Assembly (NCBI GenBank): GCA_017436675.1
Contig: JAFSCS010000001.1
Location: forward strand, 9,472-73,471
Source of the DNA: Clostridia bacterium
GTDB taxonomy: Bacteria; Bacillota; Clostridia; Oscillospirales; CAG-382
Reading direction: 5' to 3'
Length of the DNA: 64,000 nucleotides
Every line of letters begins with the position of its first letter. The first letter of the stretch is position 1. The translations under genes were made by a program, and so were the position numbers. The notes below the pieces were generated by a model. The model had not been told where the DNA came from. It ran no database searches and saw only the letters and a list, made by a program, of their open reading frames with translations. Positions 3-35,583 of this stretch are shown here, piece after piece.

Positions 3-2585
3 TTTAAGCCCGAGGACGACGTTGTTTATGCGCTCAAGGCTACAAAAGGCGACAAAACGAAGAACGTTTACGTTGTTGCGAAGGAAAAAACTGCGACTGA
101 ATACGTTCTTTATTACAATGAATTTAACGCCGAGACAGACATCGACGGTTGGAACAAAAGAACTGCTGCGTCTAACTACACAGTTGCTGACGGCAAGCTT
201 ACGCTCAACGGCACGACTTCTAATGCGATCGCTTATCTTCCCGCTTGGATCGCCGATTTCGGTAATTACCGCGTTGACTTCTCCGCTACACAAACTGACG
301 CTGCAGATACTGCACGTTGGATCTCCTTTATCTTCCGTGCGAAGAACGTTACGGCAGGCGGTTCGCCCTACTACCATATGTGTGTTCGTAAGAATATGAC
401 TCAACAAGGCTCTGCTACCACGGGCGGTGTTGAATGCGTTTCGAACACGGGCAGCTGGACGTACTACAAATCCGCGGGATACACGGAAAACATTGATTCC
501 GACACGTTCTACAAATTCTCCGTACTCGTTAAGGATTCCGTTTGTCAATACCAGATCGACGACAACGTCGTTATCCATCTTGACAAGCTCACTGCTATCA
601 ACCCCGACATCACGGGTGGTATCGGTCTTCAAGCGAACCAATCGAAGCTCGTTGTTGACTACATCAAGATCACCATCCAAAAGGATGCTCCCGTATACGT
701 AAAGCCCGAGGTTCCAAAGAATCTTCAATTCGTTGAGCATGCTGACAGCAACATCCTCAACGCACCGACAAACGTTGCTATCGTTGACTCCGCAGAAAAG
801 ATGAACGGGCTTCAAAAATTGACCGTTAAACCGTCTAACGCGATGTTCTATCTCGACAAGGAGCTCAACATTACGGCAAGTGACGGTACCAAGATCGGTA
901 CTATCGACGACGCTATCACGGCTGTCGGCGACAACATCATCCCTGCGTTCTATGTAAAAGACAAGGAAACCGTTACTGCCGCTACAACGAAGCTCAAAGC
1001 TGCGAAGCTTCTCGATGTGCTCTTTATCTCTGCAAATCCCGACGTTTCGATGCAAGCTATGAAAGCTAACGCGCTCTTCCGCGGTGCTGTTGATTTCACG
1101 GCACTTGAAGGTGACACTATCACAAAAGATCAACTTTATAACATTCGCGCTACAACGAGAAAGGCAAAATGCCTCATCGCTATTCTTCCCGCAAAATTCG
1201 CAACGCTTGATAACGTACTTTATCTCGAAGAGCTTGGTCTCACTGTTTGGATCATGGACGACGATCTCGACTCCAAAACTGATGCTGCGCGCTACATCAC
1301 AAGTGGTGCGTACGGTATCATTTCCGACAACCACGAGCTTGTTGCAGACTGTTTCACCTCTCTCTTTATCAGCAACACCTTGACAAAGACACCCGTTATC
1401 ATCGGTCACCGCGGTAACCCCTCACAAGGTCCCGAAAACTCGATCTCCAACTATCTCAAGGCTGTTGAAAACGGCGCGCAAGTTGTTGAAACCGATATTC
1501 GTCCTTCAAAAGACGGCGAGGTCATCGTAATGCACGACGATTCGATCGCAGGTACAACATCCTACAACGGTTCAGCTACTGTTGCTCAAATGACACTTTC
1601 TGAAATCAAGGAATACTTCCTCTGGGGTAGAAATGACCAATACAAAAATTCTCATCCCGATGAAAAGGTTCCGACGTTCGAAGAGATGCTCATCGCGCTC
1701 AAGGACACAGGCGTTAAGATCTTCGTTGAGCTTAAAGGCGGCGATAGCGCATTCGTAAAGAAGGCGATGGAGCTCGTTAAGAAGCACGGCTACGAGGACA
1801 GAGTATTCGTTATCTCCTTCAGCGGATCACTTCTCGAATATACACAACTTCATATGCCCGAAATGGGAACGGGTCTTCTCTCGGCTATCAGTCAATTTGA
1901 GACAGAAGAAGAGATGTATAACTCGCTTTACGGCGCTATGTTGAACTTCCAAGGTTCATACAAATCCACATACAACCCCTCATATGGTGGACTTACACCT
2001 GAGCTTGTTGCCGCACTTCGCGACAGAGGTATAACGATCTGGCCGTGGACATTCAACAACAGCACAAAAACTCAATTCCAAGATGCGTTTCTTGCGAGTG
2101 TTGGCGGTATTACGACAGACACGGCTCAATATTCGAAGAATATGACGAGAAAGGTTTATGCCGACAAATACGACTTTACGTTGAACGTTGGTGAAGAAGC
2201 TACCTTCAATGCTGAGGCTGTTCTTTATGCAGGCACACTCGTTGATATCACGAAGCATCGCTCCGCTTCGATCAAATTCATCGAGGGCGAGGACGTGATC
2301 TCTGTTGAGGACGGCAAGATCACCGCACTCAAGGACGGTACTGCAACGTTTATGATCAGATATAACGTTCGTTCTTCACCGGTTGGACAATACAACCTCT
2401 ACACACAACCGATCACCGTTACCGTAGTTTCGCCCAGTCCTGACGTTTCCGAAACAGTTTCGACTGATGTTTCCGATGGTGGCGACAATGAAAAAGGTCC
2501 TGCTACTTGGATCTATATCGTCGGTGCGGTCGTTGTAGTTGCAGTTGTTGCTGTTGTAGTTGTTGTTTCGAAGAAAAAGAAATAA
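3..2585 (+). CDS. Cell-surface glycerophosphodiester phosphodiesterase (GDPD) multidomain protein; 5' end cut by the window edge
   Basis: Frame 3 is open from base 3, with no stop before the track Met at 378. The upstream translation '...GWNKRTAASNYTVADGKLTLNG...FGNYRVDFSATQT' looks like a LamG/DUF1080 beta-sandwich. Intact GDPD motif 'VIIGHRGNPSQGPENS...ETDIRPSKDGEVIVMHDDS...GGITTD'. An upstream degenerate GDPD-like half ends in 'GAYGIISDN'. A Big_2-like domain follows, then a C-terminal TM helix 'WIYIVGAVVVVAVVAVVVVV' + KKKK. Confidence 0.8.
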   Translation, partial: FKPEDDVVYALKATKGDKTKNVYVVAKEKTATEYVLYYNEFNAETDIDGWNKRTAASNYTVADGKLTLNGTTSNAIAYLPAWIADFGNYRVDFSATQTDAADTARWISFIFRAKNVTAGGSPYYHMCVRKNMTQQGSATTGGVECVSNTGSWTYYKSAGYTENIDSDTFYKFSVLVKDSVCQYQIDDNVVIHLDKLTAINPDITGGIGLQANQSKLVVDYIKITIQKDAPVYVKPEVPKNLQFVEHADSNILNAPTNVAIVDSAEKMNGLQKLTVKPSNAMFYLDKELNITASDGTKIGTIDDAITAVGDNIIPAFYVKDKETVTAATTKLKAAKLLDVLFISANPDVSMQAMKANALFRGAVDFTALEGDTITKDQLYNIRATTRKAKCLIAILPAKFATLDNVLYLEELGLTVWIMDDDLDSKTDAARYITSGAYGIISDNHELVADCFTSLFISNTLTKTPVIIGHRGNPSQGPENSISNYLKAVENGAQVVETDIRPSKDGEVIVMHDDSIAGTTSYNGSATVAQMTLSEIKEYFLWGRNDQYKNSHPDEKVPTFEEMLIALKDTGVKIFVELKGGDSAFVKKAMELVKKHGYEDRVFVISFSGSLLEYTQLHMPEMGTGLLSAISQFETEEEMYNSLYGAMLNFQGSYKSTYNPSYGGLTPELVAALRDRGITIWPWTFNNSTKTQFQDAFLASVGGITTDTAQYSKNMTRKVYADKYDFTLNVGEEATFNAEAVLYAGTLVDITKHRSASIKFIEGEDVISVEDGKITALKDGTATFMIRYNVRSSPVGQYNLYTQPITVTVVSPSPDVSETVSTDVSDGGDNEKGPATWIYIVGAVVVVAVVAVVVVVSKKKK

Positions 2586-5038: not shown

Positions 5039-5758
5039 CTATCCGTTTCCGTGTTGAACGCCAAACACATCGGGCTTCACGTCGACACTATAGAGCATAT
5101 CACGAAGCGGCGTTGCCTCCAGCCCATGCCTTGCCGCCTCCGTAACAAGTGCGACGACTCGAGGTGCGGTGGTCGTATCGATCGCACCGACGTCTACGAT
5201 CGATCCGTTGGAAACGGTTGCCGACGGATCGACCGAGGCGATACCGTACTGACCGTATGCATCAAGGATATGCGTCAAAAGTCCGAGCGACTTTTTTGTC
5301 GAACGAACGTAGCGAGGATATTTTCCGACGTGCTTGAAGAAATCCTCGTTTGCATTCGCCAGCAAGCGAAGCGTTTCGCCGCGGCTGAGATATTCGGTAT
5401 CCTTTTCGATGAGAAGTCCGACCTCGTGGAGTGAGGCTATTTTTTTTGCATTTTCGCTGTTGACCGAATAGAATTTTTCAGAAAGAAAAAAGCAGACGGG
5501 GATCTTCGAGTCGGCGCAAAGCTGACTGAAGCGCATCAGCTCGTCAAGGTGGTTGCCGTCAAGCACGTTGACTGTCAGCGAAAACATATCCTCTCGCTCC
5601 GTCACCGAGGAGATCGGCGACCAAACGAGCTCATAGGCACTCTCGTTTTCACGATACATTCCCATTCCGACAAAACCCAAGACGACTAATATCGCCAATA
5701 TAATCACAGAGGTTCGAAGTTGACGTTTGTTTATCATCGTAATTACCTGCCGAGTCAT
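5039..5758 (-). CDS. Membrane-anchored polysaccharide-deacetylase-like (degenerate NodB) protein
   Basis: N-terminal TM helix 'VIILAILVVLGFVGMGMY'. NodB-like blocks are present but the catalytic motifs are degenerate: 'LTVNVLDG' for TFDDG, 'LHEVGL' for HxxxH, 'YPRYVRS' for RxPY. Confidence 0.4.
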   Translation of the reverse strand: MTRQVITMINKRQLRTSVIILAILVVLGFVGMGMYRENESAYELVWSPISSVTEREDMFSLTVNVLDGNHLDELMRFSQLCADSKIPVCFFLSEKFYSVNSENAKKIASLHEVGLLIEKDTEYLSRGETLRLLANANEDFFKHVGKYPRYVRSTKKSLGLLTHILDAYGQYGIASVDPSATVSNGSIVDVGAIDTTTAPRVVALVTEAARHGLEATPLRDMLYSVDVKPDVFGVQHGNG

Positions 5759-11775: not shown

Positions 11776-13059
11776 ATGATGAAAAAAACGCTCGACAAAA
11801 ACTCATCATTTGAAAAATACAAACGATACGCGTGGCTCGTGCTATTGAGCTTCGGGTTTATGTATTTATTCTTCTACAACGGCAGACAAAACATCAACCT
11901 CGTTATGACTCAATTAGCCGAGGATTTTAACTCAACTACAGCCGCTTTCGGCGTCGTCTCATCTTCTTTATTTTGGTGTTATGCCTTCGGTCAACTTATC
12001 AACGGACGGCTTGGTGCATTCTTTGGCTACAAGCGATTTATGATCATCGGTGTTGTCGGAAGCACGGTTCTCAACGTTCTCATCTCTTTTCAACACAGCA
12101 TCCCCGTTATCGCAGTTCTTTGGGGGCTCAACGGCTATTTTCAATCGATGGTTTGGTCGAACGGACTCGGCGTTATCAACAAATGGTGGCCGTCGGAAAA
12201 ACGCGGGTTCTCGACGGGACTTGCGACCTTCTTCTCCGGAATGGCGCAAGTTGTTACATATCTTTCGGTTTTACTCTCCTTACAGCTGAACCCCGAATGG
12301 AGTTGGCGCGCGGCGTTCCGCTTCCCGATGATACCGCTCGTTATATCACTCGTGTTTTTCGTTTTATTCTTCAAAAACTCGCCGTCTGAGATCGGGTTTT
12401 CGGAAATCGAGAAAGAAAAAAGCGATTCTGAAACTGACTTGGAACGAGATATCAGAGAAAAAGGATATCTTTATCCATACAAACTGCTCTTTTCCGAGCC
12501 GAAGGTTATTGTTTTTTGTCTTATTTCCGCGATCGCGGGTGTTGGCAGATACGGACTTTTGACATGGATTCCCACGTATTTCGTCGAACAACACGGACTC
12601 GCCATCAAGGATGGTATATTCAGTTCTATTCTTCTTCCGTTCGGTCAAGCTTGTGCGATGTTCATTTTCCCGATTATCACCGATAAGCTTCTAAAAGGAA
12701 AACGCGAGCCGATGCTTATCATCGCATCAACGATAACCATCGTCGGAATGCTCGTTTTCCCATTCATTACCAACCAAGCAGTCGCATCGATCATGCTATT
12801 TCTTCTCGGTGTATTCGCGATGGTAACGGGAGTTATTTGGACTATTGCGGGTGATATCGGAGGAAAGGCGCTTTCCTCGACCGTTATCGGTATTTTCGAT
12901 TGGGCAGTCTATATGGGCGCTGCTGTTCAAGCTGTATTCTTCGGCTTCGTCAAGGACACGTTCGGCTGGACGGCGATATTCGTTATCATCGCGGTATTAT
13001 ATGTAATTTTGCTGCTTTTGACGTTCTTGGCACGAAAAATGAAAACCAAGAGAGTTTGA
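11776..13059 (+). CDS. MFS transporter, organophosphate:Pi antiporter (GlpT/UhpC-like) family
   Basis: 427 aa with ~12 TM segments. 'FFYNGRQNINLVMTQLAEDF...FWCYAFGQLINGRLG' resembles OPA-family MFS proteins. Confidence 0.8.
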   Translation: MMKKTLDKNSSFEKYKRYAWLVLLSFGFMYLFFYNGRQNINLVMTQLAEDFNSTTAAFGVVSSSLFWCYAFGQLINGRLGAFFGYKRFMIIGVVGSTVLNVLISFQHSIPVIAVLWGLNGYFQSMVWSNGLGVINKWWPSEKRGFSTGLATFFSGMAQVVTYLSVLLSLQLNPEWSWRAAFRFPMIPLVISLVFFVLFFKNSPSEIGFSEIEKEKSDSETDLERDIREKGYLYPYKLLFSEPKVIVFCLISAIAGVGRYGLLTWIPTYFVEQHGLAIKDGIFSSILLPFGQACAMFIFPIITDKLLKGKREPMLIIASTITIVGMLVFPFITNQAVASIMLFLLGVFAMVTGVIWTIAGDIGGKALSSTVIGIFDWAVYMGAAVQAVFFGFVKDTFGWTAIFVIIAVLYVILLLLTFLARKMKTKRV

Positions 13060-13065
13060 TCATAC

Positions 13066-13445
13066 AAAAAAAGCGAGGAAGATAGCGAAGTGCCCTTAAG
13101 GACACTTCGCATCGATATAAATCCCTAACGGGATTTTCGATATGTTGCTATCGCAACTCGATATGCTTCGCTCGATATGTTTGCTTCGCAAACAAGGGAT
13201 TTATATCATATCGAAACCGTCCGCAAGGAAGGTTATATCGAATTTGCCGTAAGGCAAATATATCGAGCCGAGCCAAGCGAGGCATATCGACAAATAGCAT
13301 CTGTGGACACAGATGCAGTGCTTGTCAAGAAAAGAGGACATAGAACGTAAAAACGCTCTATGTCCTTTTCCTGTCGGTAGATATCATATTCTAATGAATC
13401 TAAAACTGTCCTCAAGAGTACAGCCCAATCCTCGCTTTTTATTTT
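13066..13445. repeat. Foldback 'hairpin-chain' intergenic element, copy A (TCGATAT/ATATCGA scaffold) inside a split terminator-like inverted repeat
   Basis: The core at 13085-13316 holds TCGATAT at 13112, 13137, 13158 and 13172, and its complement ATATCGA at 13208, 13235, 13260 and 13284. Each 7-mer is separated by a short GC-rich hairpin. The outer repeat is A7-GCGAGGA (13066-13079) paired with TCCTCGC-T5 (13429-13440). Confidence 0.8.
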
Positions 13446-13459
13446 TTATTTAAAACGAT

Positions 13460-14515
13460 CTATATTATCTCACAATCGTTTTTCGAAGGAAGCTCGGGAT
13501 AGACATCGTCAAGTGTATCGGAATACCAATATGCAACTGACGAGATATCGTCTTGGAGCGGCATAAACCTTCCCTCACTTCTCCATCCGAGTGCTTGGAT
13601 GGTTACCCTCAGATCCTTTTCAAAATAGATAGGATCGGTAACGTGGAAACGGTATAGGTTGAAATATCTTTGTGAACGATATATTCCGTCTGTATGGCGC
13701 ACCTTATACATTCCCGCATATGGAGTAGTATATTCAGCATATTGTCCGTTGACATCAAAATTATACGAACCGCAGAAATAATCCTCTGTACCCGTACCGC
13801 ATATTGTCGGGAACTCGTCATCACCGTCGATGAAGAATTTTATCTCACCTTCACCCCACCAACCGTTGCTTTTCGTTCCCCAATGCATATACGTTCCAAC
13901 GTAGTGTCCGTTCCCTTTTATTCCGTCCAAGATCACATACGGTTCCATATAGGGTAGCGGATTGGTGCGACGGAATTGGGCGTGGAAATAAAGTGCGTTT
14001 TCGGGGAGCGTCTTCTCTTCGCAATCGATCTGGTAATACACCTGACAACCCACAGCACCGCGGTTTTCGATCGTGACTCGAAAGCCTTCATAGTACGGCA
14101 TCTCAAAATAGCAATTCAACGCTTTTGCGGGGTTGACACATATCGGCAGACTCGTGAGTTGACGATACTCGCTATACTCTGCACTACAGAAAAAGTCGGA
14201 AAGCGGACATTCAACGGCCGGGTTTTCTTTTCCATCAAAATATATTCTCAAAATGAGGAGTCTTCCCGCAGGTGCGCTATCTGTTATCCAGATATGCTTG
14301 ATAGCACCTTGACCTTTTACGTCGGCAAGAGTTATCGTCGCGCCTGATTCACAATTGAGAAATGGGTTGACTTTCCAGCCTTGACCAAGTTCTCGAGCCG
14401 CATACGCACCCGTGCCCTCGGTCGCCATTCCACCTTTCCCTTTCTCACCCGTTAAATTTTCGGCGCATATTGAAAAAGAGCGAATTTTCTTTTTTGTTGT
14501 TAATGAATTCAACAT
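13460..14515 (-). CDS. DUF2961 / glycoside hydrolase family 172-like protein
   Basis: 351 aa with 'IKHIWITD', 'LRIYFDG' and 'GTGTEDYFCGSYNF', blocks characteristic of DUF2961. Confidence 0.75.
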   Translation of the reverse strand: MLNSLTTKKKIRSFSICAENLTGEKGKGGMATEGTGAYAARELGQGWKVNPFLNCESGATITLADVKGQGAIKHIWITDSAPAGRLLILRIYFDGKENPAVECPLSDFFCSAEYSEYRQLTSLPICVNPAKALNCYFEMPYYEGFRVTIENRGAVGCQVYYQIDCEEKTLPENALYFHAQFRRTNPLPYMEPYVILDGIKGNGHYVGTYMHWGTKSNGWWGEGEIKFFIDGDDEFPTICGTGTEDYFCGSYNFDVNGQYAEYTTPYAGMYKVRHTDGIYRSQRYFNLYRFHVTDPIYFEKDLRVTIQALGWRSEGRFMPLQDDISSVAYWYSDTLDDVYPELPSKNDCEII

Positions 14516-21077: not shown

Positions 21078-21111
21078 AAAAAAAGAACGAAGCGGTGCTT
21101 CGTTCTTTTTG
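21078..21111 (+). terminator. Intrinsic terminator
   Basis: AGAACGAAGC-GGT-GCTTCGTTCT flanked by A7 and T4. Confidence 0.7.
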
Positions 21112-21143
21112 TGCTCATAGTACAAAAATGCAACTCGTAAAAT

Positions 21144-21312
21144 CACGGCGAAGCCGTGTATGAAATCCGCAGCTTGTCTGCGGTATGGTATCAACACGAA
21201 GTGTTGAATGTAATCAATCCGAAGGAGGATACACGCTGACGCGTGATGCCATACGCCTTCGGCGATTACATACTCACCTGCGGTGAGGTTATATGCCAAT
21301 CCTTCGGATTGG
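21144..21312. repeat. Hairpin-chain intergenic element, copy B (different primary sequence, same architecture)
   Basis: Seven GC-rich hairpins with 4-7 bp stems and loops GAA, CTTGT, TGAC, TTC, TGC and TTCG. Outside the central segment they are separated by exactly 8-nt AT-rich spacers. Left spacers are TATGAAAT, TATGGTAT and AATGTAAT; right spacers are ATGCCATA, ATTACATA and GTTATATG. Confidence 0.6.
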
Positions 21313-21316
21313 ATAG

Positions 21317-21346
21317 AAAAAAGCAAGTCTCTCGACTTGCTTTTTT
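21317..21346 (-). terminator. Bidirectional intrinsic terminator downstream of the tRNA
   Basis: A6-GCAAGTC-TCTC-GACTTGC-T6. Confidence 0.7.
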
Positions 21347-21348
21347 CT

Positions 21349-21423
21349 TGGAGCTGGTGAGGGGATTTGAACCCCTGGCCTATTGATTACGAATCAATTG
21401 CGCTACCACTGCGCCACACCAGC
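21349..21423 (-). tRNA. tRNA-Thr (anticodon CGU), CCA encoded
   Basis: Manual cloverleaf fold: acceptor GCTGGTG/CACCAGC, D stem GCGC/GCGC, anticodon stem ATTGA/TCAAT with loop TTCGTAA, T arm AGGGG-TTCAAAT-CCCCT, 3' TCCA; 75 nt. Confidence 0.95.
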
Positions 21424-35176: not shown

Positions 35177-35583
35177 AAAAAAAGCAGAGAGCTTTAGCGT
35201 GTTATCCTTAACGGAGAACACGCATCGAGATAAATCCCTTGCGGGATTTTCGATATACGCCTGCGGCGTTCGATATGTGCTGACGCACTCGATATGTTTG
35301 CTATGCAAACGAGGGATTTATCTCATATCGAATTGTCGTGGAGCGACAATATATCGAGCTTGAGCGCAGTGAAAGCATATCGAGTCAACGAAGTTGACAT
35401 ATCGACAGAAGAAAAAAGAGCACGAATAGAAGGATTTATTTCCTTTTACTCTTGCTCTTTCTGCTTGTTATAAGGGTTTGGGCTTAGCCCATTTGCATTT
35501 GACTCGTCAAAGGTGATGCTCGCACTTAGTGGTATTATTATAATTCTCCGCTAAGAACAACACGATTTGAGCTCTCTGCTTTT
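35177..35583. repeat. Foldback 'hairpin-chain' intergenic element, copy C (same family as copy A) inside a split terminator
   Basis: The core at 35197-35406 holds ATCGAGAT at 35224 and TCGATAT at 35250, 35270 and 35289. ATATCGA occurs at 35325, 35351, 35377 and 35399. The shared scaffold is AAATCCC-loop-GGGATTT and GGGATTTAT..CATATCGAA. The outer perfect 10-bp inverted repeat is A7-GCAGAGAGCT (35177-35193) paired with AGCTCTCTGC-T4 (35570-35583). Confidence 0.8.

Follow-up and report, generated by a model that had tools for sequence, protein, structure and literature searches.

The window analyzed here is a 64,000-nt stretch of the chromosome of a Clostridia bacterium (GCA_017436675.1, contig JAFSCS010000001.1, positions 9,472 to 73,471, forward strand). 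It contains an inserted element of 346 nt, denoted copy A (13083-13428, minus strand), within the transcription terminator of a gene encoding an MFS transporter. Copy A is a member of a multi-copy, non-coding, mobile foldback repeat that is probably moved in trans in the form of folded single-stranded DNA. Comparison of empty and filled alleles at this locus and at the locus of a second copy in the same window (copy B) indicates that the element is inserted discretely and without a scar into terminator hairpins. At least 119 further stretches of the same family were detected in genome contigs, and searches of the literature on miniature inverted-repeat transposable elements (MITEs), terminators, Clostridia repeats and the RNA motif Gut-1 yielded no description of it; the repeat family is large and apparently previously undescribed. 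An earlier note, made from this DNA before any database search, had suggested a non-autonomous mobile or foldback element that targets terminator loops, and both the empty sites and the numerous additional copies, for which that note had proposed to search, agree with this suggestion. The element is considered non-autonomous because no transposase is linked to any of the copies.

Empty and filled alleles at two terminators

The MFS gene (11776-13059, plus strand; Pfam MFS_1, 9e-48) is followed by the terminator arm A7-GCGAGGA (13066-13079), and the complementary arm TCCTCGC, followed by T5 (13429-13440) within a longer T5-A-T6 tract (arm and tract, 13429-13447), is found on the opposite side of copy A, exactly the bracket that had been described earlier. 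In the contig L291, where the MFS protein is 95% identical at the amino acid (aa) level, the sequence after the gene reads ...GAGAGTTTGA GAATATATAAAT AAAAAGCGAGGA-AGA-TCCTCGC-TTTTTTT, so that the intact terminator AAAAAGCGAGGA-AGA-TCCTCGCTTTTTTT is present and the element is absent. The segment 13066-13082 of the window, which comprises the 5' arm and the trinucleotide AGA (13080-13082), is identical in L291. Because the empty site holds AGA, this trinucleotide is the host loop and the element corresponds to 13083-13428, with the insertion point at the junction of the loop and the 3' arm (GGA-AGA/element/TCCTCGC). Accordingly, the idea that the element splits a terminator holds, but the loop was retained rather than replaced as a whole. 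MFS orthologs with 79% identity (L268 and L269) also have a GCGAGG-short loop-CCTCGC terminator after the stop codon. On the other side of copy A, the convergent DUF2961 (GH172) gene (13460-14515, minus strand; Pfam DUF2961, 1.4e-88) was of no use for the empty-site comparison since its orthologs, at 79% identity, are not syntenic.

Copy B (35184-35579 including the host arms, minus strand) splits the terminator of an 865-aa DUF4855 gene and is located directly upstream of the promoter (TTTACA-17-TATACT) of a 284-aa gene. Its body consists of 376 nt (35194-35569) between the host arms GCAGAGAGCT (35184-35193) and AGCTCTCTGC (35570-35579). The empty site GCAGAGAGC-TTCGG-GCTCTCTG-T7 is found in six contigs (L272-L277) in which the 865-aa protein is 98% identical, and the site is also empty, with the loop TTCAG, in L278, where the identity is 85%. 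In these seven contigs, the intergenic gap is 106 nt compared to 480 nt in the window; the empty allele reads ...AAAAAAGCAGAGAGC-TTCGG-GCTCTCTG-TTTTTTTGATTTATC... whereas the window has GCAGAGAGCT-(376 nt)-AGCTCTCTGC, and the flanks of the two alleles are nearly identical, with a few substitutions in the terminator region. No target-site duplication is apparent from the comparison of empty and filled alleles of A, and for B there are at most 1-2 ambiguous bases. Thus, the "empty" intact terminator in relatives, which the earlier note had named as a check, was found for both copies. In the empty alleles, the bracket has the properties of an intrinsic terminator, namely a GC-rich stem, a short loop and a T-run directly after the gene.

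The same relationship between element and bracket recurs at separate loci that carry B-type copies (copy B itself, L125, L167, L177 and L203). The body of about 400 nt is conserved among these copies, and the brackets are different at each locus, although always complementary and flanked by A- and T-runs. Contigs that encode an identical protein next to the insertion site either contain the element or break at it; in particular, short-read contigs of the same strain (Logan, ENA) stop 50-150 nt into the element (L261-L267, L254-L257, L248 and L289).

A third allele was observed at the copy A terminator, after the MFS stop codon in L283-L290 and after the GH172 stop codon in L240 and L241. It diverges right after GCGAGGA(-AGA), has end motifs that resemble the B-type ends (TTAGCGG...), and contains a terminator of its own, a 299-aa open reading frame (ORF) without a Pfam match and a strong promoter (TTGACA-17-TATAAT in L241). 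This allele may represent a larger, cargo-carrying relative.

Organization of copies A and B

On the plus strand, copy A contains four copies of the heptad TCGATAT (starting at 13112, 13137, 13158 and 13172) followed by four copies of its complement ATATCGA (starting at 13208, 13235, 13260 and 13284); all eight heptads of the earlier description (13112-13284) were located. The start-to-start spacings are 25, 21 and 14 nt, then 36 nt across the centre, then 27, 25 and 24 nt. In the whole window, the heptad occurs 55 times, against an expectation of 19.1 +/- 4.0 (none of 100 shuffles reaches 55), and 15 of the 55 occurrences fall in two clusters of about 180 nt, one in copy A and the other in copy B (35250-35405).

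In the first array (13112-13193, plus strand), each TCGATAT is followed by a spacer hairpin, namely AAATCCC-TAAC-GGGATTT, GTTGC-TATC-GCAAC, GCTTCGC and GTTTGC-TTC-GCAAAC, so that, on the minus strand, the units read ATATCGA plus a C(GNA)G or C(GNNA)G hairpin. The second array (13208-13290, plus strand) consists of four ATATCGA heptads with the spacers AACCGTCC-GCAA-GGAAGGTT, ATTTGCC-GTAA-GGCAAAT and GCCGAGCCAAGCGAGGC. The hairpins that had been listed as fillers of 12-27-nt intervals are present, but one spacer is the 7-nt GCTTCGC only, which reads GCGAAGC on the minus strand and is a mini-hairpin motif itself. Another listed filler, GCATCTGT-GGAC-ACAGATGC (13297-13316), also exists but is located outside the array, between the latter and an internal terminator-like hairpin, and is itself terminator-like on the minus strand. 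The centre motif GGGATTTATATC (13196-13207) is complementary to GATATAAATCCC at 13114-13125, and the complementarity between centre and left end that had been noticed earlier is indeed 100% over 13 nt (13114-13126). The first TCGATAT, for which the equivalent in copy B is TCGAGAT, takes part in this pairing, which in copy A competes with the local AAATCCC/GGGATTT hairpin.

The element ends in a long terminal hairpin, GCGAAGTGCCC-TTAA-GGACACTTCGC (13085-13110), which covaries with GCGTGTTATCC-TTAAC-GGAGAACACGC of copy B. The ends resemble terminal inverted repeats (TIRs) that are imperfect, subterminal and part of the terminal hairpin (13090-13107 and 13404-13421 in copy A, with the distal segment AACTGTCCTCAAGAGTAC). 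They match at 14 of 18 positions in copy A, where 1 of 500 shuffles is as good, and at 18 of 21 positions in copy B, in both cases better than in shuffled sequences. The internal terminator-like hairpin (13335-13366, minus strand) has a 14-bp stem, after which the minus strand reads CTTTTCTT and the plus strand TTTTCC; a counterpart with a conserved sequence occupies the same position in the B-type copies (approximately 35412-35465 in copy B). The greedy ORF list contains no gene call in the gaps occupied by copies A and B, in agreement with their non-coding character.

Copy B contains three TCGATAT and one TCGAGAT followed by four ATATCGA. The heptads and the AAATCCC/GGGATTT motifs are identical in A and B, whereas compensatory changes distinguish the two copies in the bracket, in the spacer stems and in the terminal long hairpin. 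The predicted folds are very stable (for the copy A block, z = -11.0 and -10.8 relative to shuffles for the two strands), and all four minimum-energy folds (A and B, both strands) hold the terminator arms together; in copy A, the 3' arm is paired with 13073-13079 in the folds of both strands.

The region around the two copies is ordinary chromosome that encodes SpoVT, SpoIIE, PolA, SecA, hydrogenases and carbohydrate-active enzymes. The Pfam scan of the window covered 38 larger ORFs in the first 57.5 kb (approximately 40 of the 52 ORF calls), among which there was no match to a mobile element and 7 had no Pfam match at all.

Conserved structure of the family

To describe the family, we use the orientation "F", which is the strand that reads ATATCGA-AAATCCC-loop-GGGATTT and equals the minus strand of the window. 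Genome contigs, with one genome per species, were searched with the anchor pattern ATATCGAAAATCCC-N(3-6)-GGGATTT. The same anchor was employed for viral contigs, where a pattern of three TCGATAT heptads was drowned in chance matches. The resulting family size, at least 119 further stretches, is a lower bound, and the counts of neighbors and contexts given below are based on the matches listed. The elements are 150-400 nt long and share a common plan on F. A terminator or T-run and a G are followed by three to four TCGATAT units, each with its hairpin, and by the centre GA(T/G)ATAAATCCC; then come a hairpin, two to three ATATCGA units with their hairpins, the motif ATATCGA-AAATCCC-loop-GGGATTT-AT(A/C)TCGA and a longer terminal hairpin. 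The TCGATAT array nearly always lies directly 5' of the ATATCGA array, and half-elements occur as well. Two kinds of additional sequence were observed within family members. A segment of about 45 nt, GAACCCCAAA..CTTCG..GGGGAACCCC, is present in a spacer-hairpin loop in L150 (16-242), L148 (6307-6511) and L177 (about 5480-5540) and has the appearance of a different small palindromic element that is nested in the loop. In the IMG/VR contig L060 (5500-5620), the two arrays are separated by about 100 nt of inserted GC-rich sequence.

Covariation was assessed in an alignment of 61 non-redundant cores, with 500 shuffles and slid partners as controls. Standard pairs occupy 97.3% of the pair cells, compared to 85.2% in the shuffles. 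The covariation score is 0.317 against 0.100 in the shuffles, none of which scores as high, and drops to 0.02-0.06 when the partners are slid. Double changes are seen at every pair of the spacer helices, for example, AU 27, GC 25 and UA 6 at a single pair, and include the stems of the first array of copy A. Across the family, there are 364 distinct spacer sequences, and the heptad alone is fixed. Thus, heptad sequence and hairpin structure are conserved, and the sequence of the hairpins is free to vary.

The pairing between the centre and the end of the element covaries at its sole variable position (pair 179/379: UA 41, GC 18, AU 1, none unpaired). The combinations in the family are GATAT/ATATC (36), GAGAT/ATCTC (29), GAAAT/ATTTC (1) and one mixed case. 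The centre and the end are inverted copies of one motif and, therefore, recognition of both by a common protein would produce the same pattern. Subfamily changes of the heptad similarly affect both arrays together, such that GCGATAT occurs with ATATCGC. RNAalifold predicts a ladder of four-way junctions in which each TCGATAT is paired with an ATATCGA on one strand; this fold, which clashes topologically with the covarying centre/end pairing, is a candidate structure at most. Pairing between heptads cannot itself show covariation because the heptads are invariant.

Strand polarity and the possibility of a structured RNA

The spacer hairpins show a pronounced polarity. When all 296 distinct hairpins are read with the heptad as ATATCGA, the loops include 62 GNA, 52 GNNA and 37 ANA sequences, whereas TNC and TNNC are absent. 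A C-G pair closes 108 of the 114 GNA/GNNA loops, triloops outnumber tetraloops (125 vs. 92), and only 17 of the 52 GNNA loops belong to the GNRA type. With either half read as ATATCGA, the ratio of G-T to A-C mismatches is 10:5 in one and 15:3 in the other. The loop polarity and the tolerance of G-T pairs imply that each half folds best on the strand opposite to that of the other half, with the two diverging from the centre. The loop types C(GNA)G and C(GNNA)G represent mini-hairpin DNA motifs that are found at single-strand priming sites and in the single-strand promoters of phage N4; d(GCGNAGC) and d(GCGNNAGC) form extraordinarily stable DNA hairpins, with a melting temperature of 76.5 C for d(GCGAAGC) against 39 C for r(GCGAAAGC) (PMC13037366). 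Because the loops are of the mini-hairpin DNA type, the statistics point to a role as single-stranded DNA in preference to a single RNA.

The principal alternative, which we consider unlikely, is that the element functions mainly as a structured RNA, either a small RNA (sRNA) similar to Gut-1 or a 3' untranslated region (UTR) element that stabilizes, processes or terminates the upstream mRNA. Between protective hairpins, the heptads would then serve as single-stranded sites for a protein or RNase, and the spread in genomes would be secondary. Such a function would fit the covariation of the hairpins, the highly stable predicted folds, the presence of terminator-like hairpins within or next to the element, the location of one end of the element near a co-oriented gene, with a median distance of about 50 nt to its stop codon (81 of 108 cases among the matches listed), and the classification of Gut-1, an Rfam motif of the same architecture, as an sRNA with covariation support. 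However, given that the halves are opposite in heptad, loop type and G-T tolerance, no transcript would have all units in the favored sense, and the triloops and non-GNRA GNNA loops with C-G closure are a DNA mini-hairpin signature. Furthermore, the element is absent in strains with 85-98% identity in the adjacent genes, and the closing stem is host terminator sequence. The promoter scan of copies A and B detected none inside either copy, and the arrays lack any promoter-like site. One candidate, TATGATATAAAT at the centre of copy A, resembles an extended -10 element but was discarded given that its last -10 base is A and that copy B has GATAAA.

A more specific version of this alternative, a highly branched RNA closed by a terminator-like P1 stem, had been offered in the earlier note. 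It is weakened because the "P1" exists without the element, that is, belongs to the host; the opposite polarity of the halves and the lack of a promoter in the two copies also argue against a single structured non-coding RNA, which would have all helices on one strand and a start site.

Distribution and genomic context

Among the matches listed, all hosts are genome bins of Oscillospirales and related Clostridia from animal or human gut, from the groups Oscillospiraceae, Faecousia, Ruminococcus, Acutalibacteraceae and Christensenellaceae. Each genome has several stretches, many of them at contig ends; in contrast, only 4 matches were found in 2.9 million viral contigs. In 81 of 108 cases, a gene encoded on the opposite strand has its stop codon at a median distance of about 50 nt from the right end of the element in F orientation, and on the left end, the neighboring gene points its 3' end toward the element in 62 of 96 cases. 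A divergent-promoter context was seen in only 5 of 123 cases. Thus, the family is extragenic, is located mostly at the 3' ends of genes and avoids promoters. Clustering of the neighboring ORFs among the matches listed revealed no family that recurs beside the elements except for a generic ABC ATPase. One candidate partner was rejected: a small gene for a protein that by eye, with no family search, resembles four-helix bundles of the type encoded by 23S rRNA intervening sequences begins immediately next to the left end of the repeat at 6 of the at least 119 loci (L123, L137, L145, L146, L185 and L204). These genes are 70-77% identical and therefore probably represent one orthologous locus rather than a partner protein.

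This context is shared with repetitive extragenic palindromic (REP) sequences and bacterial interspersed mosaic elements (BIMEs), and the element might be a host-domesticated repeat of this kind that serves the chromosome and is spread by an enzyme similar to the REP-associated tyrosine transposases (RAYTs) of the single-tyrosine (Y1) type. The possible roles include binding of gyrase or nucleoid proteins, formation of barriers to replication forks or transcription, and protection of mRNA 3' ends. The intergenic location of several copies per genome at gene 3' ends fits this possibility, as does the presence of a conserved 5' motif before each hairpin and of arrays in both orientations, comparable to the GTAG-REPs and BIMEs (PMC3333891 and PMC2817692). 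In addition, transcription or replication from either side would meet mini-hairpins on the template strand in the near half, and the far half would present them on the lagging-strand template. Nevertheless, we give this explanation an even lower probability than a structured RNA. REPs are uniform in any one genome, whereas the hairpins within one element all differ from each other and vary among copies. The TCGATAT element forms a defined unit of 150-400 nt with TIR-like ends. A Y1/RAYT protein was not seen among the 38 window ORFs scanned, and the recurring neighbor families of the at least 119 loci offered no conspicuous candidate for one.

It is highly improbable that the heptads are duplex-DNA transposase sites, similar to the multiple end-binding sites of Mu, Tn7 or Tn402, that remain in a MITE derived by deletion from a transposon with a DDE-family transposase, with the hairpins being incidental: the three to four direct followed by three to four inverted sites, the TIR-like ends and the concerted heptad changes (GCGATAT with ATATCGC) would be expected under this scenario, but there is no target-site duplication at either empty/filled pair, the heptad spacing of 14 to 27 nt has no helical phasing, duplex binding leaves the compensatory stem changes and polar loops unexplained, and no autonomous copy was found among the family copies listed. 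A CRISPR array, which would have direct repeats of 23-50 nt in one orientation, with unique spacers of similar length between them, had already been dismissed in the earlier note, and rightly so, given the 7-nt repeat, the orientation flip and the hairpin spacers.

A possible mechanism of mobilization

The reading that we prefer, a mobile foldback repeat moved as folded single-stranded DNA, can be extended to a tentative mechanism. An enzyme encoded elsewhere in the genome would move the element in trans. The form that is moved or recognized would probably be folded single-stranded DNA, with each half offering stable mini-hairpins on one strand, and the hairpin-plus-flank units resemble the substrates of HUH/Y1 enzymes. 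Insertion would be seamless and directed to the exposed loop or the edge of terminator palindromes; the lack of a target duplication argues against cut-and-paste transposition of the DDE type. Such insertions could be tolerated in three ways: terminators would be neutral landing sites, the compact self-folding body would keep the terminator arms together, and the hairpin and T-run of the element itself could replace termination. Due to the symmetric design, in either orientation, one half would show its stable mini-hairpins on the strand that serves as the template both for lagging-strand synthesis and for incoming transcription.

Several observations weigh against this reading. The matches listed and the window ORFs scanned include no transposase, no recombinase and no autonomous relative that shares the ends of the element, and none of the family copies listed is an autonomous one with an ORF between the two arrays. 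Mobility is deduced from presence and absence alone, and the pattern is not simple: L124, with 94% identity in the MFS protein, carries a near-identical copy A, and L291, with 95% identity, lacks it, so that the history of this locus has to include loss, recombination or repeated insertion. Many short-type copies adjoin a complete, locus-specific terminator (TTTTTG/TCGATAT) instead of being inserted in its loop; loop targeting is not the sole mode of insertion. The argument for DNA over RNA consists of loop-type statistics, and the hairpin covariation and the tolerance of G-T pairs suit RNA as well as single-stranded DNA. Finally, the element occupies a 3' UTR position and is probably transcribed, and Rfam lists the related Gut-1 motif as an RNA.

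If our interpretation is correct, a prolific repeat family of abundant, uncultured gut Clostridia colonizes terminators without destroying them, which would be a clean natural "safe-harbour" insertion strategy and a possible pointer to a hairpin-directed, scarless mechanism of mobilization. It would also offer an explanation for the Rfam orphan Gut-1, known since 2010 without a function. On the practical side, these repeats break short-read assemblies of gut genome bins and leave 400-nt "intergenic" gaps empty in annotation pipelines, where they can be mistaken for large non-coding RNAs.

Relationship to known systems

At the gathering thresholds, the Rfam search detected only a tRNA, and with E <= 10, the only family that recurs in both copies is the sub-threshold Gut-1 (RF01706; 14.3 bits on copy A, 13110-13183, and 22.2 bits on copy B, against the gathering threshold of 50 bits); the model aligns to the same part of both copies. 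Gut-1 (Weinberg et al. 2010, PMC2864571) resembles the TCGATAT element in being a chain of GC-rich short hairpins with an invariant heptad in sequence of gut Clostridia type. Its consensus is CAaUGAAAU-hp-GUGAAAU-hp-GUGAAAU-hp-GUGAAAU (hp, hairpin), with the linker (A/G)UGAAAU and the heptad GUGAAAU, where the present element has UCGAUAU / AUAUCGA. The CUUCGG apices of Gut-1 correspond to C(GAA)G on the opposite strand, the loop type of the TCGATAT elements. Unlike these elements, however, Gut-1 is one-directional, with three hairpins, and was put forward as a candidate sRNA only; it has neither an inverted second array nor the centre/end pairing, and no mobility or terminator context has been reported for it. 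True Gut-1 arrays (57-63 bits) were observed in L164 (831-906, plus strand, and 2150-2227, minus strand) and in L139 (7831-7912, minus strand), those in L164 with TCGATAT elements of either relative orientation about 60-250 nt away.

There are signs of further heptad families. The window itself contains a third hairpin-chain array (21125-21320) with the linkers TATGAAAT, TATGGTAT and AATGTAAT, followed by the inverse ATTACATA. Its hairpins include CACGGC-GAA-GCCGTG and CCAATCC-TTCG-GATTGG, with a loop polarity opposite to that of the TCGATAT elements, and it is flanked by a gene terminator (21083-21113) and, on the other side, by a terminator-like hairpin next to a tRNA gene (21352-21423, minus strand). 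In L241 (1270-1340), a stretch of hairpins (GGGCA..TGCCC, CGTGG-ACTG-CCACG) is punctuated by GATAGTG, which hints at additional families. Tentatively, the TCGATAT family, Gut-1 and the TATGNAAT array (21125-21320) could be united in a new class of bacterial mobile DNA that is moved as folded single-stranded DNA and inserted seamlessly at, and perhaps also excised seamlessly from, the loops or edges of terminator hairpins, with Gut-1 acting at the DNA level rather than as an sRNA; we regard this as possible rather than probable.

With MITEs, the family shares the small size, non-coding character, multiple copies, intergenic location, presence/absence polymorphism and strong secondary structure; its TIR-like matches are imperfect, do not reach the extreme ends and belong to a terminal hairpin. 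In contrast to MITEs, there is no target-site duplication, no autonomous insertion sequence (IS) with matching ends was found among the matches listed and the window ORFs scanned, the interior is an ordered heptad-hairpin array rather than a deleted transposase gene, and the target is a terminator hairpin. The element is thus a MITE in part: it is small, multi-copy, non-coding and polymorphic for insertion, and lacks the duplication and, among the matches listed, the parent.

The similarity to REPs, BIMEs and REPINs includes extragenic palindromes in many copies, a conserved 5' flanking motif, the occurrence in both orientations and the location at gene 3' ends. For REPs, recognition of single-stranded hairpins is the proposed mode (PMC3333891 and PMC3116915). 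However, REPs are near-identical palindromes of 20-40 nt with a fixed 5' tetranucleotide that are uniform in each genome, whereas here every hairpin differs, and BIMEs alternate in orientation unit by unit, whereas the TCGATAT element flips once, has defined ends and is inserted as a discrete unit.

Group IIC introns home next to terminator hairpins. IS1397, ISKpn1, IS621 and ISPpu9 resemble the present family in that they select palindromic hairpins, not a primary sequence, as the target, and some autonomous IS elements target REPs in a comparable manner (PMC1525189). The palindrome-targeting IS elements and the group IIC introns encode a transposase or a reverse transcriptase, whereas the TCGATAT element is non-coding and has no intron features. 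It behaves like a MITE- or REPIN-type repeat that aims at palindromes, and there is a real, albeit unproven, chance that the mechanism by which it is mobilized is new.

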